Below are positions 7,767 to 30,536 of a DNA stretch of 32,000 nt, in pieces. Positions within the stretch are counted from its first letter, which is position 1. Every line of letters starts with the position of its first letter. Under the pieces are notes generated by a model. It searched no databases and was not told the DNA's origin. It worked only from the letters and a program-made list of their open reading frames with translations. A program made the translations under genes and the position numbers. The stretch is from assembly GCA_038858525.1 (NCBI GenBank), contig JAWCFL010000001.1:169172-201171 (forward strand), given 5' to 3'. Origin of the DNA: Candidatus Jordarchaeales archaeon (GTDB lineage: Archaea; Asgardarchaeota; Jordiarchaeia; Jordiarchaeales; Freyrarchaeaceae).

Positions 7767-8828
7767 ATGACGGTGATTTATGTGCCCAAGATCATTCCGC
7801 CGGAGGGTTTGAAAAGAAAGGTTATCGTTAAGAGTGAAGAGGAAACCAGTGAGGAGTACGGTAAACGTCCTAGCGAGAGGAGTGTGGAGGAGCTTTTAGA
7901 GGGGTGCTTCGTGAACATAGATAAGCCGGCAGGCCCGACCAGCCACGAAGTTTCTTCCTGGGTAAGGAGAATTTTGGGTTGCTCAAAAACTGGACATGCA
8001 GGGACACTAGAACCCCTTCAGACTTTGAAGGGGTGGTGAAATCCTAAGGTTACTGGGGTCTTGCCGGTTGCGGTAGGGTCTGCTACAAAGGTTATACAGG
8101 CCCTTCACCTTATAGGGAAAGAATACGTTTGCGTTATGAGGCTCCACGAGGATGTTGAGGGCGAAAGGATCAAGAAGATCTGTAAGGAGTTTACTGGGCC
8201 AATCTATCAGAGGCCGCCGATACGTTCCTCGGTGAAGCGAAGGCTTAGAGTAAGACGGATATATTACCTCGACGTGCTTGAGGTGGAAGGAAGAAATGTC
8301 CTGCTGAGAATAGGATGCGAGTCTGGGACGTACATAAGGAAGCTTTGCCACGACATAGGGGAGGCGTTAGGGTGCGGCGCTCACATGCGCGAGCTTAGAA
8401 GAACTCGAAGTGGACCTTTTACCGAGAGAAACATGGTAACGCTACACGACTTAAAGGACGCCTATGTTTTTTGGAAGGAGGAGGGTGATGAAGCTCCCAT
8501 CAGAAAAGTGTTATTACCAGTAGAGGAGGGAGTGCAGCACTTGCCCAAGTTTTTCGTGAGGGACTCAGCTGTTGACGCCATATGTCATGGAGCGGACTTA
8601 GCTGTTCCCGGCGTAGTCAAGCTTGAAGATGGAGTGGAGAAGGGTGATGTGGTCGCGATCTTGACTCTTAAGGGTGAACTAGTCGCTCTGGGCGTTGCCC
8701 TGATGACCGTAGAGGAAGTTGTAAGAGAAAAGCGGGGAATAGCGGTTAAAACGACAAGAGTAATAATGAGCAAAGGAACTTACCCAAAACTCTGGAAAAG
8801 CAAGAAGAATAGCGGTTCAATCACGTAG
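7767..8828 (+). CDS. cbf5: H/ACA pseudouridine synthase Cbf5, two exons (7767-8010, 8041-8828), 343 aa spliced
   Basis: [12 protein letters not shown] and GHAGTL upstream; [20 protein letters not shown] and the PUA domain downstream. Both ORF-track pieces share a frame and are separated by a 30-nt hairpin insertion containing TGA. Removing it gives GHAGTLDPKVTG. Confidence 0.96.
8011..8040 (+). other. 30-nt BHB intron in cbf5 mRNA
   Basis: Exon helix GGGA/UCCU; central helix CACU/GGUG; bulges AG|A and AA|A; intron stem ACCCCUUCA/UGAAGGGGU with loop GACUU. It splits the catalytic Asp codon (G|AT). Confidence 0.95.
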
Positions 8829-8900
8829 TTTTACATTCCCGAAAAATATAAAATACCACTAAACTTCTTCATTCCTAAAAAGGCGGGAGGTTAACAGAGG

Positions 8901-9206
8901 TTGAAGTACCCTAAAGTTAGGCGAACTTATTGTCCACGATGTAAAACACACACAGAACACTCAGTTAGCGTCTATAAGAAAGGTAAGGATAGGGCACTGG
9001 CCGCAGGAGCTAGGCGCTATGCAAGGAAGAAGAGGGGTTATGGAAGCCAGCCTAAGCTCTTCTATGTCTTATAGAAGAGGGGTAAGCCCGTTCAGAGGGA
9101 GTTCGCGAAGACCACTAAGAAGGTTAGCTTTAAGCTTAAATGCAAGGAGTGCGGTCATACGCTCCACACTAAAGGTATCCGCCTCAAAAAGGCTGAAGCA
9201 ATTTAA
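8901..9206 (+). CDS. rpl44e: 50S ribosomal protein L44e (eL42), two exons (8901-9055, 9086-9206), 91 aa spliced; absent from the ORF track
   Basis: Hand translation from TTG 8901: [20 protein letters not shown]...GYGSQPK[insertion with TAG][24 protein letters not shown]...AI*. Canonical position before S27e and aIF2alpha. Confidence 0.95.
9056..9085 (+). other. 30-nt BHB-type intron in rpl44e mRNA
   Basis: Central helix GCCU/GGGU (two G-U pairs); bulges AA|G and AA|G; stem CUCUUCUAU/AUAGAAGAG with loop GUCUU; outer exon helix imperfect. Contains an in-frame TAG. Excision gives CCT AAG CCC GTT (PKPV). Confidence 0.88.
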
Positions 9207-9222
9207 AGGGGGGATTTAAAAA

Positions 9223-9429
9223 TTGAGGAAAAAACGCGAGGTCATTCCGCAACCAAGAAGCCGCTTTTTGAAGGTTCAGTGTACTGACTGCGGCGCAGAA
9301 AACATAGTTTTTGATAGAGCAAGCACTACAGTTAAGTGCTATATTTGCGGGAAAGTTTTAGCTGAGCCGAGAGGAGGAAAGGCGCTCCTTCTAGTAAAAA
9401 AGGAGAACGTGATTCAAATTTTAAGTTGA
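9223..9429 (+). CDS. rps27e: 30S ribosomal protein S27e
   Basis: PRSRFLKVQCTDC and VKCYICG..LAEPRGGKA motifs. Confidence 0.96.
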   Translation: MRKKREVIPQPRSRFLKVQCTDCGAENIVFDRASTTVKCYICGKVLAEPRGGKALLLVKKENVIQILS

Positions 9430-9448
9430 AATAAGGGGTTGTAAAGAA

Positions 9449-10240
9449 TTGGTTAAGACGAGAAGGGAGTTTCCGGCAGAGGGAGACCTCGTGATAGCGA
9501 CTGTAACCAAAATAGCGAACCATGGAGCTTACGTAACATTAGACGAGTATGAAGGAAAAGAGGGGCTTGTCCACATTTCTGAGGTCTCCCAAAGCTGGGT
9601 TAGGAACATAAGGAACTTCCTTAAAGAGGGGCAAAAGGTCGTGGCGAAGGTCTTAAGGACGGAGCCGCGCAAAGGCTTCATAGATCTTTCTATTCGAAGG
9701 GTTACAGAGCAACAGAAAAGAGAGAAGGTACAAGAATGGAAGCGGGCGCAAAAAGCGGAGAACTTGCTTGATCTTGCCGCTAAAAAGCTCGGGAAAACCC
9801 TTGACGAAGCTTACGAGAAGGTAGGATGGCCACTCGAAGACAAATATGGAGAGATATACGCGGGTTTTGAGGAGGCCGCGGAAAAAGGCGAGCAGCCCCT
9901 CCTTGATGCTGGCGTCAGCGAAGAGTGGAGTAAAGTGATTACAGAGCTCGCTAAAGCGTACGTTGAGACGCCGAAGGTCAAAATAAAAGGCATCTTTGAG
10001 CTTACTTGTTTGAAGCGCGACGGAGTGGAAGCCATCAAAAAAGCACTGATTGCTGCGGAGAAAGTTGCAAATGGAGACGTAAATGTTGAGATCTATACTG
10101 TGGGGGCACCGCGCTACAGAATAGAGGTGACAGCGAAGGAGTATAAACAAGCTGAGAGCATAATGAAGGAAGCGGTTAATGCCGCATTAACTGTAATCAA
10201 GGAAGAGGGAGGAAGTGGAACGTTCACACGTGAAAAGTAG
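9449..10240 (+). CDS. eif2a: Translation initiation factor aIF-2 alpha
   Basis: S1 domain (GAYVTLDEY, GLVHISEV, IDLS) plus YTVGAPRYRI. Confidence 0.96.
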   Translation: MVKTRREFPAEGDLVIATVTKIANHGAYVTLDEYEGKEGLVHISEVSQSWVRNIRNFLKEGQKVVAKVLRTEPRKGFIDLSIRRVTEQQKREKVQEWKRAQKAENLLDLAAKKLGKTLDEAYEKVGWPLEDKYGEIYAGFEEAAEKGEQPLLDAGVSEEWSKVITELAKAYVETPKVKIKGIFELTCLKRDGVEAIKKALIAAEKVANGDVNVEIYTVGAPRYRIEVTAKEYKQAESIMKEAVNAALTVIKEEGGSGTFTREK

Positions 10241-10268
10241 CTATTTTCACACGTGAAAAGTAGCTATT
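10223..10268. repeat. Perfect 23-bp tandem duplication TTCACACGTGAAAAGTAGCTATT x2
   Basis: Copies at 10223-10245 and 10246-10268. Copy 1 carries the aIF2alpha stop and copy 2 carries the nop10 stop on the minus strand. Confidence 0.9.
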
Positions 10269-10437
10269 CTTTCCCTGCAAGCTCCTTCTTCAACCTTCGC
10301 CTTAAATCTCCAAAGCGGTCTTCTATTGAAAACTTTGGAGGATGCGGAACCTTTACCTCGCCCCCACAACGGGGACACGAGTCCTGCCTTAACGTATAAC
10401 TTCCACAAGAAACACATTTTCTAAGCAAGAAACCCAT
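10264..10437 (-). CDS. nop10: H/ACA RNP protein Nop10 (57 aa); absent from the ORF track
   Basis: Hand translation MGFLLRKCVSCGSYTLRQDSCPRCGGEVKVPHPPKFSIEDRFGDLRRRLKKELAGKE contains the YTL, CPxCG and PHPPKFS..D..G..R motifs. Confidence 0.93.
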   Translation of the reverse strand: MGFLLRKCVSCGSYTLRQDSCPRCGGEVKVPHPPKFSIEDRFGDLRRRLKKELAGKE

Positions 10438-10472
10438 TCCATAACCGCTCCCTTTTTACCGATCTTCCTCCT

Positions 10473-12944
10473 TTACGGGGGCGCGCTTACTTCAACATTT
10501 ATCTCTCTAGTGAATTCAGGTATAGATGTCTCTATTTTTAAAGGAACGCTTTTTCCACTTTCAAGACTCAAACCGCTATTGAAGGGTATACTAGCAGTCT
10601 CTCCAGGCCCGATGGAAACAGCAGAAATACTGCAGGATGTGCCGTTAACATATAGCTTCGTCACGTTGAAGGGGACTAATCCAGTATTACGGATTTCCAC
10701 TGTTCCACTTCCGTTAGTATAGATGCTCGCATTTACGATGTCCATGTTTGCGTCTAGTATCGAGTAATCAATCTTGTAGATTTTTACTAAGTGATTACTG
10801 GATATGAAGACGGGTTTAAAGTGATTCAGGACGCTAAATCCGTGCTTCCACCATGAGTACCATCCAGGCGGGCTCCTCGCTTCATCATAAGAGATTACGA
10901 GCGGATACTTATTCTGGTCCATGTAATTGTGGAGGGCATAATCCAGTATTAATTTACTATAAGAAGGATACACGTCTGGTGATGGGTCATGGTAGTAGAG
11001 GAGCTTGTAGAGGGTCATGTTAAAGAACTTGGGTGTGTAAATTGTGCCTGTTAGCGTTGGAGTGTAGTACTCGTATTCCCAAGGCGTGTAGAAGACGTCG
11101 AAGGAGATCTTAGCCATCCATATCCATTTTCCTTCGTCTCCGTGGAGGTTGGCATCGTTGTGTCCAAAGTAGACTAGAACATGTGTGGCGTTGAAATAAC
11201 GGAGGATCTCTAGGCTTTCTGTTTCGTTCGTGGTGGTTAGTGCTCGTCCGACGAGAGCTATTTGTGTGGTGTTGAGCGTGGCGTTGTCGACTACCGTTGT
11301 CTTGTTTCCTCTGACCATGATCCAGTACCCGTAATCCCACCAAGAAACCACTATAGCATCGGAGGGCAACTTGTTCTGCATGAAAATAAACGCTTCCTCC
11401 CAGTCGAAGTAGAAGTTCCCGTATCGGTCTCTAGGGACGAATTGCGGAGCGCCAGAGTAGACGGCTACAGTCATGCCGTGAGAGAATGAGAAAAACAGAA
11501 TGAGCCCTGTAATGGCTAAGACTACAGCGGCAGATTCTCTTCCCAAGATGCGCTTTACGATGACACGCCGCCTCTTAATGGGTATCCTTCGTTCTCCTAA
11601 CACTAGTTTTGAGAGAGGATCATAAATTGATGAAAGAGCGAACCCGGAGAGTAAGCACGCTACTGGAGCGAACATGACGATAAGACGAACCATGGAGGCA
11701 GCCATGTAAACAGTAGTTGCGCCTAAAATTATGAGGAGAAGGTCTTCGTTTCGCCTTCTTTGAAAGAGAAGATACATTCCTGCAGGAAACAGTATGACAG
11801 TTGCATGTAGGTCGTAGAAGAACATGCTCCATGATGTTGTAGCGTGCTCAGCGACACTTGACACTATGATCTCTTCTTCCCTGTAAAATGGGTTAATCAC
11901 TGAGAAGTAACGTCCACTAATTTGAATAAATGAGCGGATGCCAGATGATAAAGACAACGAAAAAATCGGGTTTATAGAATACGCGACAGCTACTCCTGTC
12001 ATGATCACGATCACTATGATAAATATCGTCACGGCGAGATTACGTTTGTTCTTGACGAAGACATGAAGTTTAGGTGCCTTGACAGCGAGTGTTTCAGAAA
12101 TGGAGGCGAGTGTAGGTTTAATGCGGGGATACGCTTCCCATGATATCAGGGCGAGTAAGACTAGCATTGCGAGGATGCAATTGCTTGAAATTATGTATTC
12201 ACTACCGTGGAATGGAACCCTCGTTCCTATAAATGCCCCTATCAAGATCGTGATGCTGTAGGTCATTAGCAGGTTTGTCGAGTACCTTTTCATTAGTATT
12301 AGGAGAATGACTGTGAGAGGATAAACGTATAGTAGGTAAATGGCGGCACCCCAGCTTGCTATGAAGCCGCCGAGGGCTAAACCAGCTATAACGGCTGAGG
12401 GGATAGATGACCTCTTCATGGATCTTATGAAGAAAAAGAGGGAGAGCAGAAAGAAGAACAAGCCAACACACTCGTTATCAACTAGACCTGCGATCGTTCG
12501 TTCTATTGCTCCCGGCAAGAACGACAGCAAAAATGAGGAGATTAGGCCAGCCTTGTCATCCAGCACCTCGCGTCCGAGAAAGAAGAGCACGACGCATGAT
12601 GCTGCTCCCATTATGGCGGGGAGAAAGTAGCACACCATGTGTATGTTGACGTTAAACCCTATAGATCTTAGCAAGAAAAAGAGGGTTGCAGCTGTGAACG
12701 GCACGCCGGGAAGGTAACTTCTGGACATGTCTAAGCCATAGGGGTACCACATCATCGGGTTATACCATCCAAACCACACGGAGTAACCGTAAATACTTAT
12801 GAAGGCGGCGTTATAGTACTGTATCGTTGAGTCATAATCCGATATATATGGAGGATACATGAAAAAGGGGTAAAGCCTTAACAAAAAGGCTAGCAGAGTG
12901 ATTAGTGATACGCTCAGAACGAGAAGGAGGTTCCGCCTGTCCAC
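10473..12944 (-). CDS. aglB: Oligosaccharyltransferase AglB/STT3 with C-terminal Ig-like domain
   Basis: Multi-TM N-terminus, DNE, SVAEH, WWDYG, DNATLN and a DxxKxxxM (DK) motif. The start may lie upstream at CTG 13004. Confidence 0.95.
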   Translation of the reverse strand: MDRRNLLLVLSVSLITLLAFLLRLYPFFMYPPYISDYDSTIQYYNAAFISIYGYSVWFGWYNPMMWYPYGLDMSRSYLPGVPFTAATLFFLLRSIGFNVNIHMVCYFLPAIMGAASCVVLFFLGREVLDDKAGLISSFLLSFLPGAIERTIAGLVDNECVGLFFFLLSLFFFIRSMKRSSIPSAVIAGLALGGFIASWGAAIYLLYVYPLTVILLILMKRYSTNLLMTYSITILIGAFIGTRVPFHGSEYIISSNCILAMLVLLALISWEAYPRIKPTLASISETLAVKAPKLHVFVKNKRNLAVTIFIIVIVIMTGVAVAYSINPIFSLSLSSGIRSFIQISGRYFSVINPFYREEEIIVSSVAEHATTSWSMFFYDLHATVILFPAGMYLLFQRRRNEDLLLIILGATTVYMAASMVRLIVMFAPVACLLSGFALSSIYDPLSKLVLGERRIPIKRRRVIVKRILGRESAAVVLAITGLILFFSFSHGMTVAVYSGAPQFVPRDRYGNFYFDWEEAFIFMQNKLPSDAIVVSWWDYGYWIMVRGNKTTVVDNATLNTTQIALVGRALTTTNETESLEILRYFNATHVLVYFGHNDANLHGDEGKWIWMAKISFDVFYTPWEYEYYTPTLTGTIYTPKFFNMTLYKLLYYHDPSPDVYPSYSKLILDYALHNYMDQNKYPLVISYDEARSPPGWYSWWKHGFSVLNHFKPVFISSNHLVKIYKIDYSILDANMDIVNASIYTNGSGTVEIRNTGLVPFNVTKLYVNGTSCSISAVSIGPGETASIPFNSGLSLESGKSVPLKIETSIPEFTREINVEVSAPP

Positions 12945-13139
12945 TCTAACTTTAGCAGCGTAGAAAAGCTCGCTTATAAGGGATGATAATCTTTTTCTCG
13001 CCAGTTGCGCCGCCTCCCCTATATGTCCCTTTACAACCTCCTTTATCTCACACTGCTCTTTTAAAAATTATCTCTCTTTCTATTAGACGAAAGACTATGT
13101 AGCCTGAAATCTAAGGCATGCAATACTAAATAGATGATA

Positions 13140-13153
13140 AGGTTTATAAAAGG
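13140..13153 (+). promoter_or_regulatory. Probable TATA box for rps3ae
   Basis: AGGTTTATAAAAGG about 55 nt upstream of the ATG, in the divergent aglB/rps3ae spacer. Confidence 0.5.
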
Positions 13154-13206
13154 ATGGGGTGTAGTCCCCTTATCGTGACTCACACCAAGAACCTGAAGGG
13201 GATTGG

Positions 13207-13827
13207 ATGAGTAGAGAGCGCGTGAAGGATTCTTGGAGCGCGAAAAAGTGGTTTACGGTTCTCGCACCGACATACTTTGGAAATGTCGAGATAGGTTTAA
13301 CGCCTGCTGACAGCCCGGAGAAGGTGATAGGCAGGGTAATGGAGGCCACTCTTTATGACATTACTGGCGACTTCTCTCTGATCCACGTTAAGCTCTACTT
13401 TAGGATAATAGACGTTTCAGGAGAAGTGGCTCAGACGGAGTTCTATGGCCACGAGTTCACTAGGGACTACTTGAAGAGCCTTGTGAGGAGAGGCACTAGT
13501 AAGGTTGACGGAATATTTGACGTTGTAACTAAGGACGGGCGAGCTTTACGCGTGTACCCTGTAGCTTTCACGATTAACAGGATTAAAACCAGTCAGGAAA
13601 AGATTATCAGAAACGTGATGGGAGAGGTTGTGGAGAAAAAAGCGGAACAGTTAAACTACGGCGAATATGCTCAGGAAGTTGTGCTTGGAAAAATTGCTTC
13701 CGAGATATACAACTTAGCTAGGAAAATAGTTCCTTTAAGGAAGTGCGAGGTTTGGAAGACGAAGCCCATTAAAGTACGGGCAAAAACGGTGGAGACGCTT
13801 AGAGCGGAGACACAAGCTACTGCTTGA
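13207..13827 (+). CDS. rps3ae: 30S ribosomal protein S3Ae (eS1)
   Basis: KDSWSAKKWFTVLAP, GRVMEATLYDITGD, RDYLKSLVRRGTSKVD and VPLRKCEVWK motifs. Confidence 0.96.
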   Translation: MSRERVKDSWSAKKWFTVLAPTYFGNVEIGLTPADSPEKVIGRVMEATLYDITGDFSLIHVKLYFRIIDVSGEVAQTEFYGHEFTRDYLKSLVRRGTSKVDGIFDVVTKDGRALRVYPVAFTINRIKTSQEKIIRNVMGEVVEKKAEQLNYGEYAQEVVLGKIASEIYNLARKIVPLRKCEVWKTKPIKVRAKTVETLRAETQATA

Positions 13828-13864
13828 ACATTTATTTTTGATGCTTATAGTGGAGGGGACCTAT

Positions 13865-14005
13865 GTGAGCACGGGAAAAAAATGTGTTAAATGTGGTGCT
13901 GCTCAAGTTGAAGTTTTGGTTAAACAGCCTATGTCTTCAGGTGTTGAATACACGTACAAGTGCTTGGTCTGCCATCATACGTGGAAGGAAAAGAAGCGCT
14001 TTTAG
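13865..14005 (+). CDS. 46-aa stand-alone zinc-ribbon protein resembling the TFS/TFIIS C-terminal ribbon; absent from the ORF track
   Basis: SD GGAGGGG then GTG: MSTGKKCVKCGAAQVEVLVKQPMSSGVEYTYKCLVCHHTWKEKKRF, with CxxC...CxxC spacing and a YxCxxCxHTW end. Confidence 0.75.
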   Translation: MSTGKKCVKCGAAQVEVLVKQPMSSGVEYTYKCLVCHHTWKEKKRF

Positions 14006-14253
14006 GTTTTTCCGGATAGCGTTACGACGTCCCCTACAATCTTCATACTTGCAAGTATATCATCCAGCGTCGACAGTAAAGTGCTGATCTTGCCGTTGTA
14101 CTCGAGAAGCATGATTAACCTATTTTCGTCTGATTTCATTTCAAACTTCATGTTTTTAGGCAGAGGCGTGTTATCGGGCGACAACGCTCTCAATGTTATG
14201 GCGGCCTCGGAGGGGGAGGAAAATTCCACTTCAATAATTATTTTAGCCATCAT
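14002..14253 (-). CDS. pcc1: KEOPS subunit Pcc1
   Basis: ALSPDN and LLSTLDDIL pattern, 83 aa; downstream of S15-DHH as in the conserved archaeal cluster. Confidence 0.82.
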   Translation of the reverse strand: MMAKIIIEVEFSSPSEAAITLRALSPDNTPLPKNMKFEMKSDENRLIMLLEYNGKISTLLSTLDDILASMKIVGDVVTLSGKT

Positions 14254-14271
14254 TCGCCCACTTCTCCATCA

Positions 14272-16154: not shown

Positions 16155-16207
16155 AATAGAACCCTTCTCTCAGGATAATGCTAGGGGGCTGATAAGAAAC
16201 TTGATGT

Positions 16208-17403: not shown

Positions 17404-17409
17404 CGTATC

Positions 17410-18440
17410 TCACCTCTCACTCTCAACCCATGATACTTGAACCTCGTCAAGCCTCCACCTCGGCTTCACGTAGCTTTCCTCCACCCTTAGGATCCTTCCA
17501 CTAACATACTCTAATATTCCTGTCCAGGCGATCATTGCTCCATTATCTCCTGCCAACTGCTGGGGGACCACGTGGAAGGAGGCGCCATGCTCCTCAGCTA
17601 TCACTCTGATCATTTCTTGCAACCTCCTGTTTCTGCCGACACCTCCCGTCAGTAGAACGTCACCTTTACGCGTGTGCGCCAGAGCCCTCTCAGTCACTTC
17701 AGCCAGCATGGAGAAGCAGACTTCCTGAACGCTGTAGCACAGATCTTCAACTTTGCAACTACCAATCTTGCCAACCGCAGCGGTGTAAACCCCAGAATAG
17801 GAGAGGTCCATTCCCTTGACGACATATGGCAGCGGAATAAAAGTGCTTCCTTTACTCGCCAGCTCTTCGACCTTTGGCCCGCCAGGATGCTTTAAACCCA
17901 GCGCCCTAGCGAGCATGTCAAGCATGTTTCCGATGGCCAAGTCAAGCGTCTCCCCAAAGACACGGTACCTGCCTTTCTCGTAAGCTGCAACCAGAGTGTT
18001 TCCTCCAGAAACATACAACGTTAAGGGGTCTTCAACGTTCTCGGTGAGACGCCCAATTTCTATGTGGGCTAAACAGTGATTAACGCCCACTAAGGGAACG
18101 TTTAACGCCAGTGCAAGCGCTCTGGCAGCCGTCGCCACCGTTCTCAGGCAAGGGCCTTTGGGGGCTTCGCCAACCCCGGCCCTTGAGAGAACGCGACCAA
18201 GTTAACCTCACTTATTTTGATTCCGGCTTCGCTTATAGCTGAGGTGATCGCCTGCTTAACCGCGTTCGAGTGGTGCTGCGCGGCTTCCCTAGGGTGGATC
18301 CCGCCCTCAGCGGGCACATACTCGTCTCTGATGTTCGCTAGAATTTCTCCTTCACTACTTGCCACTCCTACACCTAAAGTGTGAGCTGTTCCTTCGAGCC
18401 CCATGCATAGCAGGCGGCGGCCGCCCAGTGCCTTCCTCAC
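17410..18440 (-). CDS. kae1: t6A synthase Kae1/TsaD, two exons (18440-18172, 18157-17410), 338 aa spliced
   Basis: GLEGTAHT, GGIHP and VAFSQGPGL in one frame; GPCLRTVATAAR, VNHCLAH, VSGGNT, GETLD and DNGAMIA in another. Removing 14 nt joins them. The GTG 18440 start is tentative. Confidence 0.94.
18158..18171 (-). other. 14-nt canonical BHB intron in kae1 mRNA
   Basis: Exon helix CAAGGGCC/GGCCCUUG (8 bp); central helix GGGG/CCCC; bulges UU|G and AA|A; mini stem GC-GAA-GC. Excision gives GGG TTA GGC CCT TGC (GLGPC) and removes the frameshift. Confidence 0.93.
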
Positions 18441-18459
18441 AAGTCTCAGTGTAGCGCCA

Positions 18460-18660: not shown

Positions 18661-18682
18661 TTAACATCCCTCCCTTTCGCTC

Positions 18683-20387: not shown

Positions 20388-20801
20388 TTATAAAATTTCC
20401 CCATCAAGAAACAAACGTCTTCCCTGCCTTAGAAAGACCACAGGCACACCAACCCGCCTGAGACGCCTACGAAGCTTGGCGTCATTAGTCGCCACAACAC
20501 AACCCTCCCTCTTAGCATAATCGAAGACCGCGTCATCTACGCCCCCACCCTCCACCCCCGATGGGCAAACCCTAAACCCTCTTACCTCAACGAGAGACAA
20601 GGCAGCCCTTGCCAGTTTCCCTCTCCTCCCACCCTTCTCAGCCAGCTTCATCAACTCATCAATAACCCGATCCAAAACAATAACCTCATAGCGCCCACCA
20701 ATAACCCGACCAAGCTCTGAGAAGACATCCCATCCCAACAGAAACGGAGCAATCAAAAAGTTACTGTCAACTAAAACCCTAACATATGATCCCCCACCCA
20801 A
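20388..20801 (-). CDS. PIN-domain ribonuclease (Fcf1/Utp24-like)
   Basis: VLVDSNFL, VIDEL, VDD and VATND.KLRRRL motifs; conserved position after aIF2gamma. Confidence 0.9.
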   Translation of the reverse strand: MGGGSYVRVLVDSNFLIAPFLLGWDVFSELGRVIGGRYEVIVLDRVIDELMKLAEKGGRRGKLARAALSLVEVRGFRVCPSGVEGGGVDDAVFDYAKREGCVVATNDAKLRRRLRRVGVPVVFLRQGRRLFLDGEIL

Positions 20802-22093
20802 TAAGCCTCCACCTTCCCGAAACCATCCTGCTCACAGCCACCCTCTGACCATCCTCAGCACACACAGGACGCCGCAGCGCCACTTCAACCTCCCCACTCC
20901 TAATCGACGATACAACGCCCACTGTCACCGCCGACCCAACATTCAGCATTAAAGCCTCATTAACACGCACATTCTCCACCCTGGAAAGCTCCTCGCTTCC
21001 CACAACCCTATCCATCAGGTGAAGCTCAATACACAAATCCTCACGCACGGGAGGAAGGGTCCCGGGAGAACCTACAACGTTCCCAATCAAACCATCAGCC
21101 TTCGTCAAAGAGGGGTCCAGCCGCGTACCAACACCAATCAACCCACCTGGCAAAGCTTCCTCAAGCCACACGTCACCAGCATGCAAACTTACAACGTCAG
21201 CATAAATAGGCTCAAACTTACCTTTAACAGCAACTCCCGGACGAATTTCAACCTCATCCCCAACCCTAACTCTACCTTGAATAATGGTTCCACCAATAAC
21301 GCCCCCAACAAGATCCTCAGGCCTAGTTCCCGGCTTATTCACATCAAATGACCTCGCCACATACATCCTCAAAGGCTTACCCGGGTCTCTAACCGGATTA
21401 GGAATATGCTCTTCCATGAACTGCAACAAAGCATCCAAATTAACACCAAAAACAGCCGAAACAGGAACAATAGGAGCATCCTCAGCAAAACTACCACCAA
21501 TAAACCTCTTAATCTGTCTAAAGTTTTCTAATGCCTTCTCCCTAGAAACAAGCTCAACCTTATTCTGAACAATAACAACATTCCTCACACCAATAATCTC
21601 CAAAGCCGCAAAGTGCTCTCTAGTCTGCGGCTGAGGGCAAAACTCATTAGCAGCAACAACAAAAACACAACCATCCATCAAAGACGCACCACTAATCATG
21701 GTCGCCATTAACCGCTCATGACCAGGACTATCCACAAAGCTGACCTTCCTCACAAACTCAGCTTCACTCCCACACTTAGGGCACTTCCACCCCCCAGCCA
21801 TAGCCAAAGTAAAGTAGCAGTCAGGAGGCGGGCAAGATGGACACTTCAAAATAATAGCATCAGCATAACCCAACTTAATCGTAATACCACGACGCTTCTC
21901 CTCACTATGACGATCAGTCCACACACCAGCCAAAGCCTGCACAAGCGTGGTTCTTGGCCCGCGAGAGAGACACTCCCAACGGATTGCCATGATCCACGTC
22001 TCTAGCACCAGCTGATCAACAGCTGGCGAGTCCAGCTGTTCCCACAGAAACTAAAGCCTGCGTACTCATGGCCTTCTTATAAGCTTCGTCCAA
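20779..22093 (-). CDS. eif2g: Translation initiation factor aIF-2 gamma, three exons (22093-22030, 21999-21984, 21952-20779), 417 aa spliced
   Basis: TDRHSEEKRRGITIKLGY, FVDSPGHE, CPQPQTREH and NKVE motifs. The P-loop missing from the ORF track is rebuilt as GTAGHVDHGKTTLVQAL after removing two insertions. TTG 22093 follows an SD GGGGG. Confidence 0.95.
21953..21983 (-). other. 31-nt BHB intron 2 of aIF2gamma mRNA
   Basis: Central helix UGGC/GCCA; bulges AA|U and AG|A; stem CCGU-U-GGGAG/CUCUC-GCGG with loop UGUCU; outer helix CGUGG/CCACG. It splits the P-loop Lys codon (AA|A). Confidence 0.92.
22000..22029 (-). other. 30-nt BHB-type intron 1 of aIF2gamma mRNA
   Basis: Central helix CUGG/CUAG; bulges AC|U and AG|A; stem CGCCAGCUG/CAGCUGGUG with loop UUGAU; in-frame TGA; outer exon helix weak. 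It splits the His codon (C|AC) of GHVDHGK. Confidence 0.9.
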
Positions 22094-22136
22094 ACAAGAA
22101 CCCCCAAGAGCTTTTAGGAAAGTCTTCACGAAAGCG

Positions 22137-22152
22137 TTATTTAAAAGTTTCC
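22137..22152 (-). promoter_or_regulatory. Probable BRE-TATA promoter of the aIF2gamma operon
   Basis: The minus strand reads GGAAAC-TTTTAAATAA about 44 nt upstream of the TTG start. Confidence 0.6.
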
Positions 22153-22500
22153 AGCGAAAGGATGAGGAAGGGTAGATGGTGGCGATACGAACAGTCAGAG
22201 CGGCGGGTGTTTGTTTATGTGTTTTGGCGGAGGCGGGATGTCGGGGGTTCTAAAAAATATGTCTATTTGTGTGATGAGAAACTTGGGGATGAGGAGCTTG
22301 CTGATTAGGGGTTTCGTTACCGGGAGGAGAGAGTTATTGTGATGAGCTAGGTCTTTACGACGGGGCCACCCAGCGTTTACCCGTAAACCTTCTGGGAGCT
22401 GGGAAGCTTGGTTGGAGCTTCTCAGTTTGCGTTCCGCTTCTTGGATGCAAGGGAGCGTCGATGAATGTGGTGTTAATTCTATAAGCTTGCCCCCCCTCTT

Positions 22501-22762
22501 ATGAGAGTTTACGTGTTAATTAACGTTGAGCTGGTGGAGAATCGATGAGGGGGGGCTGTGAGTTAGGAGCCTGAGATGAAAGAGATTGGCGGGGAGCCAG
22601 GTTTCAGAGGTAGGCACATCTCGAGTACGGAAAGGTGGAAAACAAAGCCTGGCGAAATGGTTGATGGCCCATAAAGACGAGGTGAGATTCAAGGGGCTGC
22701 CTGGAGCTGTGAGGAGCAAGGTGAAAAACACGGCAAAATTTGACCGACAAGCTCACGCATAA
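22501..22762 (+). pseudogene. Possible decayed small-gene remnant (Lrp/AsnC-like fragments)
   Basis: MRVYVLINVELVENR* followed by a fragment containing LPGAVRSKV loosely resembles Lrp/AsnC ligand-binding domains. There is no intact ORF. Confidence 0.25.
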
Positions 22763-23219
22763 GTAACTCATAAATGCCATAGCCCAACTTATTATTACTC
22801 AACAAGAAAAATAAGCTGACGCTTAAGACAAACAACAGCTCACACACCAAAACTAGCCAGGCTTCAATCAATAACAATAATACGCCAAACCCAGCCAGTA
22901 ACAAGAGAGCTACCATCCATCACGCAACAAAACCACAAGGATGCCCACACCAGGACCAGTAAGCCTATACACCAAAACAATCCACGAACCCACACAACCA
23001 GAAAACTAACCAAAACCACACAAAAATACCGAAAATACCGAAAAAAGCTCCAAACACCACCACCCACCCATAAACAACCTGACCATCTAATAATAATTAC
23101 TCAACCACAACACCGAAAAACACAAAAACAAAAAACGACAAGTTCACAGAAGAGTCGAAAAAAATAAAAAACCAGACAAGTAGACAATCCTAGTAAACAT
23201 CTAATAGGAGGGTTTTAAG

Positions 23220-24521: not shown

Positions 24522-24584
24522 ACCTTCTTTGCTTTTTCTTTTTTGGTTGTGGTGTTTATCGTTGTGCGGGGTGTGTTCTGTTTT

Positions 24585-24758
24585 ATGAAGTCGGTGTCTT
24601 TTAGGGTTCCTGAGGAGTATTTGAAGGGGCTTGGTGTTCTTGTTGAGCTTGGGGTCTTTAGGAGTCGGAGTGAGGCTGTTCGTGCTGCTGTGAGGGAGTT
24701 GCTACGGAGGGAGGGTGTTTTCGAGGATGAGGTGGCGGTGGTTGTTGATGTTGATTGA
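24585..24758 (+). CDS. Ribbon-helix-helix (CopG/CdrS-like) protein
   Basis: MKSVSFRVP...LVELGVFRSRSEAVRAAVRELL is a typical RHH pattern. ATG at 24585. Confidence 0.85.
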   Translation: MKSVSFRVPEEYLKGLGVLVELGVFRSRSEAVRAAVRELLRREGVFEDEVAVVVDVD

Positions 24759-24803
24759 TGAAGGTGTGGTTTTCTCTTGGGTGGGGTTTAGGGAGGGGTT
24801 GGC

Positions 24804-25505
24804 TTGGGTAGGATTTGTGTTTCGTTGATGGCTGATACTGTGGAAGGACTGATGGGCAAGGTTGAGAGGGCGTGTGAGGCGGGGGCGGACTTAGTTGAGT
24901 TGCGGTTGGATTACTTAAGGGAGAGGGATGTGGATGTTGCGGGGCTGGTTTCTGGTTTGGGTGTGCCTGTGATTTTGACTGTGAGGCGTAGGGAGGAGGG
25001 AGGGGTTTTCCCGCTGGGGGAAGAGGAGAGGGTGGGGCTGATTGAGAGGTGCATTGAGGCTGAGCCGGACATGGTGGACCTTGAGTTGTCGATGGGGGTT
25101 AGTGTTCTTCAGAAACTCATCTCCCTTTGTAGGGAGAGAGGGGTTTCGGTTATTCTTTCATATCACGACTTTAGTGGGACGCCTTCCTGGCAGGATCTTA
25201 GGGGGAGGGTGGCGGCCATGTTTAGGTTGGGTTGTAGTGTGGCTAAAGTTGTGACTGCGGCAGGGGCTATCAGTGATAATCTGCAACTTTTGGGGCTGGC
25301 GTCCCTGTACCCTCAGCGCGTGGTAGCTTTCTGTATGGGTAAGATAGGGGTTCTGTCTAGGGTTCTGTGCACGTTTTTTGGGTCGCCGTTCACGTATGCC
25401 TCGTTGGATGCGCCGCTTGCCCCGGGGCAAATAGACATTGCAACTATGAGGAAGGTGCATGAAAGCTTGGCTCGCATACTCGATGCGGTGGGGAACCATG
25501 TTTGA
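24804..25505 (+). CDS. aroD: Type I 3-dehydroquinate dehydratase
   Basis: DLVELRLDYL, ILTVRRREEGG, VDLEL, ILSYHDF, AKVV and APGQI motifs. Confidence 0.93.
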   Translation: MGRICVSLMADTVEGLMGKVERACEAGADLVELRLDYLRERDVDVAGLVSGLGVPVILTVRRREEGGVFPLGEEERVGLIERCIEAEPDMVDLELSMGVSVLQKLISLCRERGVSVILSYHDFSGTPSWQDLRGRVAAMFRLGCSVAKVVTAAGAISDNLQLLGLASLYPQRVVAFCMGKIGVLSRVLCTFFGSPFTYASLDAPLAPGQIDIATMRKVHESLARILDAVGNHV

Positions 25506-25736
25506 GGCGGGCTTCGCCGGCGGCTTCTGGCGTTCAGCGTTTATCCGGATCAGTTTGAGGTTGGGTGTTTTTGAGGCGTGATAGTGGGGGGGGAAGCGGG
25601 GGTCCACGGGCTTCGTGATTGTGGTTGGAGCTTGGTCTTCTTTTCGTGTTTTTGTGTTTGATGGGTTGCTCAGCTGTGGAGCGATAAAAATATAAATTAT
25701 TGTGGTTTGGGTTGTTGTGAATTGGGGGTTTGTGGC

Positions 25737-26264
25737 TTGCCGAGGCGACCATCTAGGTGCTATACGAGGATTGATGGGCCACCTTATACGCGGGTTGAGT
25801 ATATTCATGGGAGCCCGCCTTCCAAGATTAGGATTTACGAAATGGGAAATGCTAGTCGCAACTATACTTTGAGGGCTGACTTGGTTATCGATGAGGCTTG
25901 TCAAGTCACGGACGGCGCTCTCGAGGCTTTGAGGGTTGCGGCTAGCAGGCATCTCACGAATAGCTTTGGGCGTGACGGATTCTACCTCAAGATTAGGCCT
26001 AAGCCCTTCCACATTATTCGTGAGAGGAGGATGTTGGCGTTCGCCGGGGCAGACCGTTTACAGGACGGCATGAGGAAGGCTTTCGGCAAGCCTTCAGCGA
26101 GGGCGGCGCGCGTTAAGGAAGGAGAAGTTATTTGCAGCGTTTGGGTCGACGATTCGCCAAAGGCTGTTGAAGCTGTTAAGAAGGCGCTTTACGTTGGGGC
26201 TAGGAAGCTTCCCCGTCCATCCCACATAGAGTTTACTAGAGGGGAGAGCCTAACCTTAAAGTGA
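25737..26264 (+). CDS. rpl10e: 50S ribosomal protein L10e (uL16)
   Basis: RPSRCY, PPYTRVEYIHGSP, ALEALRV, PFHIIRE and AGADRLQDGMRKAFGKP motifs. TTG start at 25737. Confidence 0.96.
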   Translation: MPRRPSRCYTRIDGPPYTRVEYIHGSPPSKIRIYEMGNASRNYTLRADLVIDEACQVTDGALEALRVAASRHLTNSFGRDGFYLKIRPKPFHIIRERRMLAFAGADRLQDGMRKAFGKPSARAARVKEGEVICSVWVDDSPKAVEAVKKALYVGARKLPRPSHIEFTRGESLTLK

Positions 26265-26876
26265 TTGCGGATCTCCGGATAGGATCCGCCATTCCTCGTC
26301 TTTGTGAAGCTTGCTGAACTCTGGACCAGTGGCGCCCGCATACTTTGGTAGTGGCTTTTTAAGGTAGCTGCTTTCCCCTCCAGTTACCCTGTGAAGGACT
26401 AGCTGTGCTATTCTGGCGGCGGGGTAAAGGGCTATGTCTGCCTCTCCTAGGTTCACGAGTTCAAGTGTTAAAACGCCGGCGTAGCCCGGGCTGACAAGTG
26501 TTGCTGTGGCGATGATTAGGCCTAGGCGACCCCACGAGGAGCGCCCTATCACGTACCCCATGAGGTCTTCGGGGAGCTTTATGTACTCTAGAGTGCTTCC
26601 AAGTATGAGCTGGTTTGGGCGCAGTATGAGCTTCTCGCGGAAGGGGACATGGATCTTTTCTTGGTACTGCGCTATTTCTGCTTCTATGTTTTGCTGCGCG
26701 GGGTCTAGAAGGGAATACTTTGTACGCTTCGTTATGATGAACTCTGTTCCAAGCCTAAGGTCGACTGACCCTGCGGAAACCTGGCTCTTCGAGATTAGAG
26801 GTGTTATTACTAGTTTCTCTTGAGTGTTGGACGTGAATAGTCTTCGCAGGATCTCCTCTTTTGAAAGGACGGTCAT
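26256..26876 (-). CDS. dcd: dCTP deaminase-family (trimeric dUTPase fold) protein
   Basis: SVDLRLG, LGSTLEYIKLP, GRSSWGRLGL, PGYAGVLTLELVN and IAQL motifs. Confidence 0.85.
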   Translation of the reverse strand: MTVLSKEEILRRLFTSNTQEKLVITPLISKSQVSAGSVDLRLGTEFIITKRTKYSLLDPAQQNIEAEIAQYQEKIHVPFREKLILRPNQLILGSTLEYIKLPEDLMGYVIGRSSWGRLGLIIATATLVSPGYAGVLTLELVNLGEADIALYPAARIAQLVLHRVTGGESSYLKKPLPKYAGATGPEFSKLHKDEEWRILSGDPQSL

Positions 26877-28018
26877 ATTTCCGCCTCTAGCAAGCTTTTG
26901 TGTATTATGCTCAGTTCTATTGCTTTTTCTATTAGGGCGGCAAGCTTTTTCTTTGCTTGGTATTTCCCTTCAGGATCCTGAACTTTCAGGATGTTGCAGA
27001 AGGTAGGCATATAGCGCTGCTTAACTATCCAGCCGGCGTTTATTATTGAGGGTATCTCGGCGGGGCGCGTAGCCTTGTCTGGTAAAGTGACCTCGTTTGG
27101 GGGAAGTAGCTCTAGAAGTCTTGAGACAAGCTGAGGAACCTCGCACTCAAAAACTTCGGGAGGGTAGTAGGCGGCTGTTTTCCTAAAGGATTCTTCTATC
27201 TCGTGGAGGCGCTCTATGCCGGTAGATGAGCGCAGCTCTTCTAGAGGAGGCAAAGAGCCGCTCAGGAGCTCCTCTTCATAGTAACCTTCATCTGCGAGCA
27301 GGGCGGCTATGTTTCGTATGCGCTCTTTTACATCGGAAGCAAGTGACGCATCGAAATTTGTGAGTGTGAAGAGGTAGGCTGGGCCGACCATTAAAGAAGC
27401 TAAACGGTCTGCGGCGATTATTAGAAGCTTGTTCGAGGATCCCTCCCCGGTAAGGGTTTCTTCGAGAAGACGTTTTGATTCTATCATGTGGAGAGCTAAC
27501 TCACGCGCTACGAGGCAGTGTGAAAGAGGGTCGTTCCTCAGGAAGTAAGGAAGGGTGAAGAAGAGAACTTCTTCTTTAAGCTCTCGGCTTTCCGGGGGGA
27601 GAAGGGGGGCGGCGAGTTTGAGGATGTCTGAGAGGCGAGAGTGAGAGGACGTGTAAGATTGAAAGCAGATGATGGGGACCGCTTCTTCACCTGCTTTCCC
27701 GGTTAGGTATTCTGCCAGGTACACTGCTCCTAAAGAGGTGTAATGAACGTTCGAACGCTCTATTTTTTCGATGAGGCCACAAATCGCTTGTAAAAGTTCA
27801 TATCCCTTCTCGACTAAAGCTTTCGTGGAGGAAGAGGGCGGAAGAGATTCTAGAGAAGAGCGCAGGTTCCAGACAAGTGAGAAGAGAGATTTAACAGCTC
27901 TCCTTTGAGTTGGCCTAGGAAAGACTCCCAGCTCGATCCGCCTCAAAAGTTCTTCCAAGTCGAGGAATTTCTCTACGAGAATCTCCGAGCTTTTTGTCTC
28001 CAACAAGGAACACCTCAC
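26873..28018 (-). CDS. Uncharacterised 381-aa helical protein, translationally coupled to the dcd-like gene
   Basis: Long ORF with SD GGTGAGGTG and a 4-nt overlap with dcd; no family recognised with confidence. Confidence 0.75.
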   Translation of the reverse strand: MRCSLLETKSSEILVEKFLDLEELLRRIELGVFPRPTQRRAVKSLFSLVWNLRSSLESLPPSSSTKALVEKGYELLQAICGLIEKIERSNVHYTSLGAVYLAEYLTGKAGEEAVPIICFQSYTSSHSRLSDILKLAAPLLPPESRELKEEVLFFTLPYFLRNDPLSHCLVARELALHMIESKRLLEETLTGEGSSNKLLIIAADRLASLMVGPAYLFTLTNFDASLASDVKERIRNIAALLADEGYYEEELLSGSLPPLEELRSSTGIERLHEIEESFRKTAAYYPPEVFECEVPQLVSRLLELLPPNEVTLPDKATRPAEIPSIINAGWIVKQRYMPTFCNILKVQDPEGKYQAKKKLAALIEKAIELSIIHKSLLEAEI

Positions 28019-28454
28019 CAGTCATTTTGGTTGATCAGCCAAGTTCTAAAGGATTTCTCCCCTATAAACGGCAAATAAGGTGGGAGAGCGACAAACTACT
28101 CATAGATAGGTCATCACTCATAAGGAGAAACAAGTGAACCTGTGTCAGAGTTACTTTTAATGCTGCCATAGCCGGGGTTAAGTGTTAAAGACGTGGCTGA
28201 GGTTGGCCTTTAAGTTGAGTTTTTGATGTTGCTCTTGATGAGGCCTGCTCCCTTAAAGTTCAAGAGGGAGCGTGACAAATTTGATGAGGTGTAAATGTCG
28301 TTTTCTATACTTAGGAAAAATAGACAAAGTTTAAATAGGAATGTGTTAGAATAGGGAAGATAAAGACTTAAATAAGTCTTGGTGAAAATACCCTGTTTGA
28401 AAAATGCGAGCTTTCTTTTTTTTAAAAAGAAAGGATGGGGAGAAATGGATAACG

Positions 28455-30536
28455 ATGAGTGGTGATTCCGAAGATAATAATGAGAAACATAAAAAGCGCC
28501 ATGTCAACGGTTCTAGAGGGAAAAAAAGTAACGGCGCGGGCGGTAATCACAGTAATGGCAGCAATCACAGGCAAAGCGTAAAAGTCCTTGGTCCCGTAAG
28601 CAACTTAGAGGAGTACGTTCCACACGACTGGTGGAGTCGAATCTTCAACTCGCTTTACCTAAAGACTGACGGGGACGTTGTAGACGACCAAGAGATTACG
28701 CGTTACGAAGTGGACTTGTTCTCCTCGATCCTAAAGCTTAAGCCTGAAGACAGGATCCTCGATTTGTGCTGCGGTCAGGGACGCCACTCCTTGGAGCTAG
28801 CGAGGAGAGGATATAAGTTCGTTGAGGGACTTGATAAGTCGCATTACCTGATACATAAAGCTAAGGAAAGAGCGAAAAAAGAAGGGTTAAATGTCAGGTT
28901 CAGGGTTGGCGATGCGAGAAAGTTACCCTACCCACCGGACACTTTTGACGTCGTGATGATCTTGGGGAACAGCTTCGGCTACTTTGAAACGGTATACGAC
29001 GACCTTAGAGTGCTAAAGGAGGTTTTCAGGGTTCTGAAGCCGTGGGGCCGGGTTCTAATAGATGTAGCTGACGGAGAATACCTCAAGGAGCACTTCCAGC
29101 CTCGCTCGTGGGAATGGGTGGACAAGAAGCACTTCGTTGTCCGAGAGCGCTCATTATCAGCTGACCGGCAACGCCTCATATCCCGAGAGATAATCACGCA
29201 TGTTGAGAAGGGAGTTATTGCAGACCACTTCTATGCGGAAAGGCTCTACACGAAAGAAGGACTCAGAGACCTCTTGCAGCAAGCCGGCTTAAGCGACGTC
29301 ACTATTCACGGGGACTTAACGACGTTTTCTAAGCGCAACCAAGATTTAGGAATGATGGAGAAACGCATAGTAATCACCGCCATAGCCAAGAAAGAGTGGA
29401 CGCCGATAAAGAGAAGAGAAAAAGAGTCACTCTTAACGGTCGCAGTAATCCTAGGCGACCCAACTAAACGCGACCCACTAAAACCCGGCGGGGTATTCGA
29501 CGAAGACGACATTTACACGATCGACGCGCTCAAGGACGCGTTAAGACAACTTAATGGCTACAACTTCATATACCTAAACAACCACGATAACTTACTCCAA
29601 GACTTGATTAAACTCAAGCCGAAAATAGATTACGTCTTCAACTTGTGTGATGAAGGATTTAACAACGATCCAAGAAAAGAGTTACACGTCCCAGCGATAC
29701 TTGAAATGCTCAATATACCTTATACCGGCTCAGGGCCACAACCTCTAGCCCACTGCTATGATAAATCCCTGATAAGGGGATTGGCGAGAGAAATGGGGAT
29801 TCCTGTTCCCAAGGCAGTCCTGATTAAGCCAGAAGACGAATCCGTCGAGATACCCTTCGGCTTTCCGGCCATAGTAAAGCCAAACTTCGGCGACTCAAGC
29901 TTTGGAATCACATGTAGGTCAGTGGTTAACAACTCCGAGGAGCTCCTAAACGCCATAGCCGAAATACGCGAAAGGTTTGGCTACAACAGACCAATACTTA
30001 TCGAGGAGTTCTTGACCGGAAAGGATCTAACAGTAGGAATAATAGGAAACGTACCTGATTCCTACATGGTTCTACCCATAACGGAAGAAGACTACTCGAG
30101 TCTACCAGAAGGAATGCCTCCGATTTGTGGCTACGAAGCAAAATGGCTTCCCGACTCGCCATACTGGAATATTAAAACGAAGCCAGCGGAGCTACCGCCT
30201 GAAACAGAAACGATCATTGTAAAGTCGTGCATCAGCCTCTTTGAACGACTCGAAATCAGAGACTACTGCAGGTTCGACTGGAGGCTTGACGCAAACGGAA
30301 GGCCAAAGCTTCTCGAGGTCAACCCCAACCCCGGATTGGGTGCACCTAACGGTGCGCCGCACGGAAGGTGTTGGGACGGGCACCTCGCAAAGATGGCGAA
30401 GTTCGCAGGGATGTCTTACGCTGAGATGCTAGGAGCCATCCTAAGGGCGGCAGAGCAGAGACTGGGCATCCGACCGAAATACGAGAAATATGAGAAGGTA
30501 GGGGAGGAAGCCCGGGTAGAGGCGAGGGCAACATAA
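28455..30536 (+). CDS. Class I SAM methyltransferase fused to a D-Ala-D-Ala-ligase-like ATP-grasp domain
   Basis: N-terminal ILDLCCGQGRH, GDARKLPY and GNSFGYF; C-terminal VFNLCDEG, PYTGS, IVKPNFGDSS, LIEEFL, RFDWR and EVNPNPG. ATG at 28455; the ORF track opens at 28404. Confidence 0.9.
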   Translation: MSGDSEDNNEKHKKRHVNGSRGKKSNGAGGNHSNGSNHRQSVKVLGPVSNLEEYVPHDWWSRIFNSLYLKTDGDVVDDQEITRYEVDLFSSILKLKPEDRILDLCCGQGRHSLELARRGYKFVEGLDKSHYLIHKAKERAKKEGLNVRFRVGDARKLPYPPDTFDVVMILGNSFGYFETVYDDLRVLKEVFRVLKPWGRVLIDVADGEYLKEHFQPRSWEWVDKKHFVVRERSLSADRQRLISREIITHVEKGVIADHFYAERLYTKEGLRDLLQQAGLSDVTIHGDLTTFSKRNQDLGMMEKRIVITAIAKKEWTPIKRREKESLLTVAVILGDPTKRDPLKPGGVFDEDDIYTIDALKDALRQLNGYNFIYLNNHDNLLQDLIKLKPKIDYVFNLCDEGFNNDPRKELHVPAILEMLNIPYTGSGPQPLAHCYDKSLIRGLAREMGIPVPKAVLIKPEDESVEIPFGFPAIVKPNFGDSSFGITCRSVVNNSEELLNAIAEIRERFGYNRPILIEEFLTGKDLTVGIIGNVPDSYMVLPITEEDYSSLPEGMPPICGYEAKWLPDSPYWNIKTKPAELPPETETIIVKSCISLFERLEIRDYCRFDWRLDANGRPKLLEVNPNPGLGAPNGAPHGRCWDGHLAKMAKFAGMSYAEMLGAILRAAEQRLGIRPKYEKYEKVGEEARVEARAT
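30337..30366 (+). other. Candidate 30-nt degenerate BHB intron, in frame and stop-free
   Basis: Stem GGUGCACC/GGUGCGCC with loop UAAC; central helix CCGG/ACGG (one G.A mismatch); bulges AU|U and AA|G; outer helix CCCAAC/GUUGGG. Excision gives NPNPG-W-CWDGH. Confidence 0.68.

Follow-up and report, generated by a model that had tools for sequence, protein, structure and literature searches.

The DNA considered here, hereafter the window, is a stretch of 32,000 nucleotides (nt) from the genome of a Candidatus Jordarchaeales archaeon, a member of the Asgard archaea (assembly GCA_038858525.1, contig JAWCFL010000001.1, positions 169,172 to 201,171 of the forward strand). It opens with the end of a ribosomal-protein/SecY cluster, which is followed by cbf5, rpl44e, and the genes for S27e, aIF2-alpha, and Nop10. 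A minus-strand group then holds bud32, kae1, and the genes for S27ae, S24e, RpoE, and aIF2-gamma, and after it come EF-1alpha and a gene in which an S-adenosylmethionine (SAM)-dependent methyltransferase is fused to an ATP-grasp domain. Five of these genes, namely cbf5, rpl44e, kae1, the aIF2-gamma gene, and the methyltransferase/ATP-grasp gene, are interrupted by inserts of 14–31 nt, with two of the six falling in aIF2-gamma (Table 1). Judged from their sequences, the six inserts are very probably archaeal bulge-helix-bulge (BHB) introns, i.e., introns of the endonuclease type, and the mRNAs of the five genes would almost certainly need splicing.

Table 1. Interrupted genes of the window with their predicted introns and one neighbouring gene, followed by predicted introns found elsewhere in the genome (C, contig of the assembly; ORF, open reading frame)
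Feature	Position	Strand	Length and effect	Basis
cbf5 exon 1, ending GHAGTL plus G of the catalytic Asp codon	7767..8010	+		Pfam DKCLD (1.8e-15), ORF list
cbf5 predicted BHB intron	8011..8040	+	30 nt, in-frame TGA	homology gap, BHB fold
cbf5 exon 2	8041..8828	+		Pfam TruB_N remainder, TruB_C_2, PUA
rpl44e (eL42) exon 1	8901..9055	+		Pfam Ribosomal_L44, profile positions 1-36
rpl44e predicted BHB intron	9056..9085	+	30 nt, in-frame TAG	homology gap, BHB fold
rpl44e exon 2	9086..9206	+		Pfam Ribosomal_L44, profile positions 38-74
kae1 exon 1	18172..18404	-		Pfam TsaD, profile positions 2-62; tblastn
kae1 predicted BHB intron	18158..18171	-	14 nt, frameshift	homology gap, BHB fold
kae1 exon 2	17410..18157	-		Pfam TsaD, profile positions 70-264
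bud32, after kae1	17403-16777	-		Pfam kinase/RIO families
aIF2-gamma exon 1, MSTQALVSVGTAG plus C of the His codon	22030..22069	-		sequence, alignment
aIF2-gamma predicted intron 1	22000..22029	-	30 nt, in-frame TGA	BHB fold, alignment
aIF2-gamma micro-exon, ACGUGGAUCAUGGCAA, part of HVDHGK	21984..21999	-	16 nt	alignment
aIF2-gamma predicted intron 2	21953..21983	-	31 nt, frameshift	BHB fold, alignment
aIF2-gamma exon 3	20779..21952	-		Pfam GTP_EFTU, GTP_EFTU_D2, eIF2_C
SAM-methyltransferase/ATP-grasp fusion gene, exon 1	28404..30336	+		Pfam Methyltransf_25, Dala_Dala_lig_C
methyltransferase/ATP-grasp candidate intron	30337..30366	+	30 nt, in frame, no stop	alignment gap, imperfect BHB
methyltransferase/ATP-grasp exon 2	30367..30536	+		ORF list, alignment
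ppsA predicted intron	C1:42657-42676		20 nt	name by Pfam
pcm predicted intron	C1:145146-145116		31 nt	name by Pfam
gatE predicted intron	C2:68773-68802		30 nt	name by Pfam
aEF-2 predicted intron, between DTPGHV and DF	C4:81118-81146		29 nt	name by Pfam
radical-SAM gene, predicted intron	C21:5929-5956		28 nt	name by Pfam
unnamed gene, predicted intron	C25:8184-8156		29 nt	homology test
unnamed gene with EGKYHYDGH motif, predicted intron	C5:70254-70277		24 nt	homology test

The inserts had been proposed in an earlier, sequence-only reading of the window, and all six are present where that reading placed them. When each is excised after the second nucleotide of the two 3-nt bulges of its BHB, the frame opens across all six junctions and complete proteins result, with the motifs GTLDPK (cbf5), SQPKPV (rpl44e), PGLGPC (kae1), GHVDHGKTT (aIF2-gamma), and NPGWCW (methyltransferase/ATP-grasp) regained, just as had been claimed. 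These junctions coincide with gaps in alignments to intron-less orthologues. Pfam searches confirmed the identities of the genes and found the exon pieces to be contiguous in profile coordinates, and the consecutive segments of the Ribosomal_L44 and TsaD profiles support the placement of the junctions. Left unspliced, five of the six inserts would introduce an in-frame stop (TGA twice, TAG once) or a frameshift (twice), in keeping with the original count. The affected genes had also been described as core or essential, which holds for cbf5, rpl44e, kae1, and aIF2-gamma and does not extend to the methyltransferase/ATP-grasp gene.

The structural evidence depends on how the motif is defined. A strict BHB was taken to be a perfect 4-bp central helix with a 3-nt bulge at either end, the two bulges lying on opposite strands. 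Five inserts (those of cbf5, rpl44e, and kae1 and both of aIF2-gamma) have this structure and the sixth has a G.A mismatch in the central helix, which agrees with the earlier description of five clean motifs and one imperfect one. By itself the motif proves nothing, because loose BHBs (a perfect 4-bp helix with a 2-bp inner helix) are very common, numbering 8830 per 64 kb. If position and length are specified beforehand, chance produces a strict BHB with p = 0.003 and a relaxed one with p = 0.055. The boundaries of the inserts, however, were set without reference to structure, by alignment gaps to insert-less orthologues. Since the register was thereby fixed independently, the five strict BHBs found at it are far beyond chance, with a joint probability of about 3e-12 once equivalent registers are allowed for.

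A second line of evidence comes from comparison with 30 relatives from 17 families, as the sequence-only reading had advised. Four of the interrupted genes are uninterrupted in most other families, and assemblies produced independently by different studies, single-contig genomes among them, show the same inserts in the same places. For five of the inserts, this same-site recurrence is accompanied by changes in length and by compensatory changes in the paired bases. Such recurrence bears directly on the idea that the genes are pseudogenes or that the inserts are artefacts of assembly or binning. The host genome is indeed a draft of 63 contigs (92.7% complete, with 2.8% estimated contamination), and standard ORF calling does break the genes concerned, as an artefact would. 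An artefact would nevertheless have to arise repeatedly at the same sites, and pseudogenes would not be expected to have exons under strong protein-level conservation or an RNA structure kept by compensatory changes, so that this explanation is unlikely in the extreme. The genes, four of which are core, moreover occur in single copy: a tblastn search of the 92.7%-complete genome with the spliced products found no second copy, and thus no intact paralogue, of cbf5, rpl44e, kae1, or aIF2-gamma. Further copies of the intron sequences were likewise absent from the genome, giving no sign of a mobile repeat.

The cbf5 insert provides the clearest case. Its central helix (CACU/GGUG) lies between the bulges AGA and AAA, with an inner helix of 9–10 bp and an outer helix of 4 bp, and the minimum-energy fold obtained without constraints is the BHB itself. 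The insert divides the catalytic Asp codon after its first letter, where the exon ends in CACUAG and resumes with AUCCUAAG. It occurs at the identical site in 12 genomes, with lengths of 27–41 nt; these comprise the present genome, all 10 other genomes of the order, and one of a further family (G021, locus L026), and GTLDPK is ungapped in the cbf5 of 18 other genomes. The inner helix shows paired substitutions, for example ACCCCUUCA/UGAAGGGGU, GCCCUUAC/GUAAGGGC, and GCCUCCU/AGGAGGC. When the inserts were aligned and folded with RNAalifold, the complete hBHBh' arrangement of outer helix, 4-bp central helix, two 3-nt bulges, and inner helix was recovered de novo, with double (compensatory) changes in 7 of the 14 pairs.

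The protein record for cbf5 is consistent with the same interruption. In a set of 5.8 billion proteins, all relatives with at least 75% identity are truncated at the N-terminus to 234–255 amino acids (aa) and lack the DKCLD domain, and approximately two-fifths of the best 120 matches are truncated likewise. Such truncated calls (P0001–P0007 and many others, about 250 aa) come from this lineage and from many different ones. A full-length cbf5 product of a spliced transcript was also sought in this set, and none was present among close relatives. One full-length candidate, P0012, was set aside, as it belongs to another lineage (61% identity) and is encoded on a DNA contig from a hydrothermal vent. 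The pattern suggests that the cbf5 intron has been widely overlooked in annotation.

In rpl44e, the central helix is GCCU/GGGU, both bulges are AAG, and the inner helix has 10 bp. The BHB is again the unconstrained minimum-energy fold, although no strict outer helix is formed. The insert occupies one site in 10 genomes of two families (f1 and f2), at 29–33 nt, and is absent from 12 other genomes, one of which is the complete genome G006; in a further eight genomes, L44e is divergent, its coding sequence differing by 18 nt, and no BHB is present. The compensatory signal is weaker here than in cbf5 (2 of 11 pairs). The absence from G006 (L039) is instructive, as five congeners of that genome (L046–L049 and L052) carry a 33-nt intron at the site.

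The kae1 insert is the shortest of the six. Its central helix (GGGG/CCCC) and bulges (UUG and AAA) enclose an inner helix of only 2 bp with a GAA loop, and an 8-bp outer helix is formed between the two exons. Inserts occur at one site in three families, with lengths of 13–14 nt in f1, 28–29 nt in f2, and 28–30 nt in f3, where the carriers are G022 (L073) and the 1.42-Mb single-contig genome G011 (L074); PGLGPC is ungapped in 18 other genomes. The outer helix is built from two exonic Gly-Pro codon pairs, and covariation within it occurs at the synonymous third positions of the Gly codons. These positions are complementary in all 10 intron-bearing loci (GC in four, UA in four, CG in one, UG in one) and, counted by eye, in no more than about 4 of the 18 loci that lack the intron, a comparison that is indicative only, as the relatives are not independent of one another.

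The aIF2-gamma gene has two predicted introns on either side of a micro-exon, both of which interrupt codons of GHVDHGKTT, the P-loop motif. Intron 1 has the central helix CUGG/CUAG, the bulges ACU and AGA, and a 9-bp inner helix. It is found in only one congener, G002 (33 nt, with the helix CCGG/CCGG); G003, G004, and every other family searched lack it. Intron 2 (central helix UGGC/GCCA, bulges AAU and AGA) is canonical in its 5′ bulge, central helix, and inner helix. Its 3′ side is relaxed: there is no strict outer helix, and the micro-exon and exon 3 pair over 5 bp to close a 4x4 internal loop that would contain the 3′ cut site. The unconstrained minimum-energy fold is the BHB. Introns of 29–30 nt occur at this site in G002, G003, and G004 and also in the distant genome G027 (L136), whose intron is apparently independent of those in the four f1 genomes. 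Other distant Asgard families use the sites of kae1 (G022 and G011) and cbf5 (G021). Where the His-Gly codons differ synonymously, the intron strand of the central helix that pairs with them has changed to match (UGGC/GCCA, CGGU/GCCG, CGGC/GCCG, and AUGG/CCAU). By eye, the cores of the two BHBs do not overlap, the first being formed by exon 1 and the 3′ part of intron 1 and the second by bases 11–14 of the micro-exon and the 3′ part of intron 2, so that both can form simultaneously. Between aIF2-gamma and the divergent EF-1alpha gene lies a region of 1.15 kb (22070–23219) with no long ORF or Rfam match.

It is conceivable that the inserts are kept in the mRNA and handled by the ribosome, with TGA and TAG read as selenocysteine or pyrrolysine or simply read through, with programmed frameshifting at the 14- and 31-nt inserts, or with ribosomal bypassing. 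Three inserts are multiples of three with one in-frame stop, hairpins occur in all of them, and there have been claims of stop-codon recoding in this lineage. Retention is very unlikely even so. The inserts are exactly missing from orthologues in other families, they vary freely in length (27–41, 13–30, and 29–33 nt in cbf5, kae1, and rpl44e), and their interiors diverge save for the paired bases, which is unlike coding sequence. The 14- and 31-nt inserts would need different frameshifts, and the sequence, on reading through it (no dedicated scan was run), showed no matching take-off and landing codons of the kind that bypassing would use. What is conserved is the BHB geometry, with its cut register at the junction.

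Several observations nevertheless weigh against reading all six inserts as BHB introns. Folding energies give z-scores of only -1.2 to -2.6 relative to shuffled sequences and do not discriminate on their own. The introns of rpl44e and aIF2-gamma (both) lack a proper outer helix and are thus relaxed, HBh'-like motifs. In a short sequence context, the minimum-energy folds of the kae1 intron and of aIF2-gamma intron 1 are competing hairpins. A search of metagenome contigs of the Joint Genome Institute (JGI) for words spanning the spliced rpl44e junction, in the forms of both families, gave no match, a result that is uninformative either way and is counted here on the unfavourable side. Lastly, the methyltransferase/ATP-grasp insert is in frame and stop-free, its central helix is mismatched (relaxed motifs of this kind arise by chance with p of about 0.05), and it occurs once, with no orthologous insert by which covariation could be judged.

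This sixth insert clearly stands apart from the others. Its central helix, CCGG/ACGG, contains the G.A mismatch, the bulges are AUU and AAG, and the hairpin of 8–9 bp has a bulged inner helix. None of the 16 orthologues compared carries it; all of them, three congeners of 86–92% identity among them, read an ungapped PNPGWCWD. A frame-preserving, stop-free insert requires no splicing, and so an ordinary translated insertion of 10 residues, or an indel at the level of the strain, is possible but less likely than not; the imperfect BHB and the want of a second genome with the insert both leave room for it. If the insert were left unspliced, however, the Trp codon of PNPGWCWD would be lost; this Trp is found in every one of the 16 orthologues, directly after the ATP-grasp EVNPNPG loop, and excision at the BHB register rejoins U and GG exactly to restore its codon. 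The insert also forms a strong hairpin, with a 3′ bulge (AAG) rich in purines like those of the five other window introns, and the genome contains many such introns. On these sequence features, we somewhat favour an intron, which would then be a very recent gain. The original proposal, that all six are BHB introns removed by EndA and RtcB, is thus borne out for five by comparative, structural, and gene-content evidence and is only plausible for the sixth.

The enzymes expected to remove such introns are encoded in the genome. There are two homologues of the splicing endonuclease EndA (two matches to PF01974, at C3:81835-82089 and C43:5978-6235), one of which shows Tyr, His, and Lys where a catalytic subunit would have them and the other of which lacks the His, with residues assigned by eye; the latter would serve as a structural beta subunit. 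The RNA ligase RtcB is present in one copy (PF01139, 601 bits). Asgard EndA has been described as an (alpha-beta)2 enzyme with an L1 loop that accepts relaxed motifs (PMC5829648), and the pair of catalytic and non-catalytic homologues fits this type. A pathway can be proposed in which each insert folds with its flanking exon bases in the pre-mRNA as a 4-bp helix between two 3-nt bulges, heterotetrameric (alpha-beta)2 EndA cleaves both bulges behind their second base, and the exons are ligated by RtcB, which probably also closes the intron into a circle, so that the frame and the conserved motif are regained. Cleavage and ligation themselves, and the part played in them by EndA and RtcB, we infer. 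Should splicing fail, truncated products would be expected from four single-copy core genes (cbf5, rpl44e, kae1, and aIF2-gamma).

Removal by another route, whether by self-splicing or by some other nuclease and ligase, is highly improbable. At 14–31 nt the inserts are far below the size of group I and group II ribozymes, whose cores run to hundreds of nucleotides, and a search of the window found no Rfam match at the gathering score (nor any ARAGORN match). The conserved feature is moreover the exact geometry and register recognised by EndA, and the genes for EndA alpha and beta and for RtcB are all present.

A heavy load on this machinery would fit what is known of the host group, in which 92–95% of tRNA genes contain introns, frequently several to a gene and outside the canonical positions (PMC11291895; 10.64898/2026.10.13.758758). 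ARAGORN found 5 uninterrupted tRNA genes in the present genome and 11 when introns in the anticodon loop were allowed. So few in a 92.7%-complete genome implies that most tRNA genes are interrupted at other positions, and the 5 uninterrupted genes fit the published intron load.

The extent of splicing among protein genes was explored in several ways. A genome scan for the BHB motif alone proved useless, as loose BHBs are everywhere, and when filters for ORF joining and hexamer coding were added, 3821 hits survived, the majority of them at ordinary gene boundaries. A homology test against the reference G011 (1.42 Mb) required a BHB insert that bears a stop or frameshift and without which the junction aligns with no gap. 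The test is conservative and sets a lower bound, since it misses short exons, introns in common with the reference, and in-frame inserts without a stop. It recovered cbf5 and rpl44e and added seven more genes (Table 1), among them aEF-2. The sequence-only reading had urged a search for BHBs in split genes and had argued that the organism splices mRNAs routinely and that standard annotation breaks the genes concerned; the seven or more additional introns and the N-truncated cbf5 proteins support this view. Taken together, it is likely that obligatory splicing of mRNAs by the tRNA-splicing machinery is pervasive in the lineage, affecting at least a dozen protein genes in each genome, among them kae1 and genes for translation factors and a ribosomal protein, and extending to multi-intron genes with micro-exons and to gain and loss of introns within one genus. 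Among congeners, such turnover is seen in rpl44e (G006), in aIF2-gamma intron 1 (L113 of G003 against L112 and L114, with the intron in two of three assessable congeners), and in the methyltransferase/ATP-grasp insert.

Two other features of the window were recorded. The SecY gene (3552–5216) has an in-frame insertion of 87 nt at approximately 4647–4738 relative to the SecY of G011; a weak BHB there does not match it in length, and the insertion is probably a genuine loop insertion. The L32e gene (190–879) encodes a protein of 229 aa with a long acidic C-terminal extension.

Splicing of mRNAs at BHB motifs has been confirmed in archaea only for the cbf5 of Crenarchaeota (Aeropyrum, Sulfolobales, and Desulfurococcales), where introns of 22–31 nt divide the catalytic Asp codon after its first letter; other cases have merely been predicted (PMC2738675). 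Papers of 2018–2025 still cite the same three cbf5 studies (Watanabe 2002, Yoshinari 2006, and Yokobori 2009), the word intron is absent from a 2026 Asgard review, and no other documented case turned up in open-access papers or bioRxiv, which upholds the earlier statement that crenarchaeal cbf5 is the one well-documented archaeal mRNA intron. The Asgard cbf5 intron has the same nucleotide position and a similar size, and this coincidence points to an ancient intron since lost many times or to a site at which insertion is favoured and recurs. The differences are that the present case comes from another phylum and is known from DNA sequence, that at least 12 protein genes are interrupted here, with cbf5 only one among them (the others include a ribosomal protein gene, kae1, and those of two translation GTPases), and that one gene has two introns around a 16-nt exon.

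The tRNA introns of Freyarchaeia/Jordarchaeia and Atabeyarchaeia (PMC11291895; 10.64898/2026.10.13.758758) offer a parallel from the same lineage. They share small size, a hairpin build, and the presumed machinery with the introns described here and are likewise gained and lost rapidly between close relatives. Both reports cover tRNA genes only, and the text of the preprint contains neither 'mRNA' nor 'cbf5'; here it is mRNAs that would be spliced, with consequences for reading frame and translation. A more distant parallel is found in the splicing of eukaryotic HAC1/XBP1 by IRE1 with RtcB or Trl1, which also employs a protein-only nuclease and a ligase at paired stem-loop sites and removes a short intron that changes the reading frame, with joining of the RtcB type (PMC13149111). 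That system differs in its nuclease and recognition motif and is regulatory, with a single target.

What is new here is that the mechanism appears to be needed for many Asgard genes, including those for aIF2-gamma, with its two P-loop introns, aEF-2, and L44e, as well as kae1. Because gene callers truncate or split such genes, completeness estimates and the marker sets used in phylogenomics would be distorted, and claims of stop-codon recoding may possibly be affected as well. The gain and loss of these introns at the level of species would also provide natural material for studies of intron origin. A prokaryote with many split essential genes must somehow coordinate splicing with coupled transcription and translation, and this has a bearing on how intron-bearing genes were tolerated before there was a nucleus. 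If the present reading is true, relatives of the eukaryotic ancestor would already have kept translation from outrunning splicing on many essential mRNAs.

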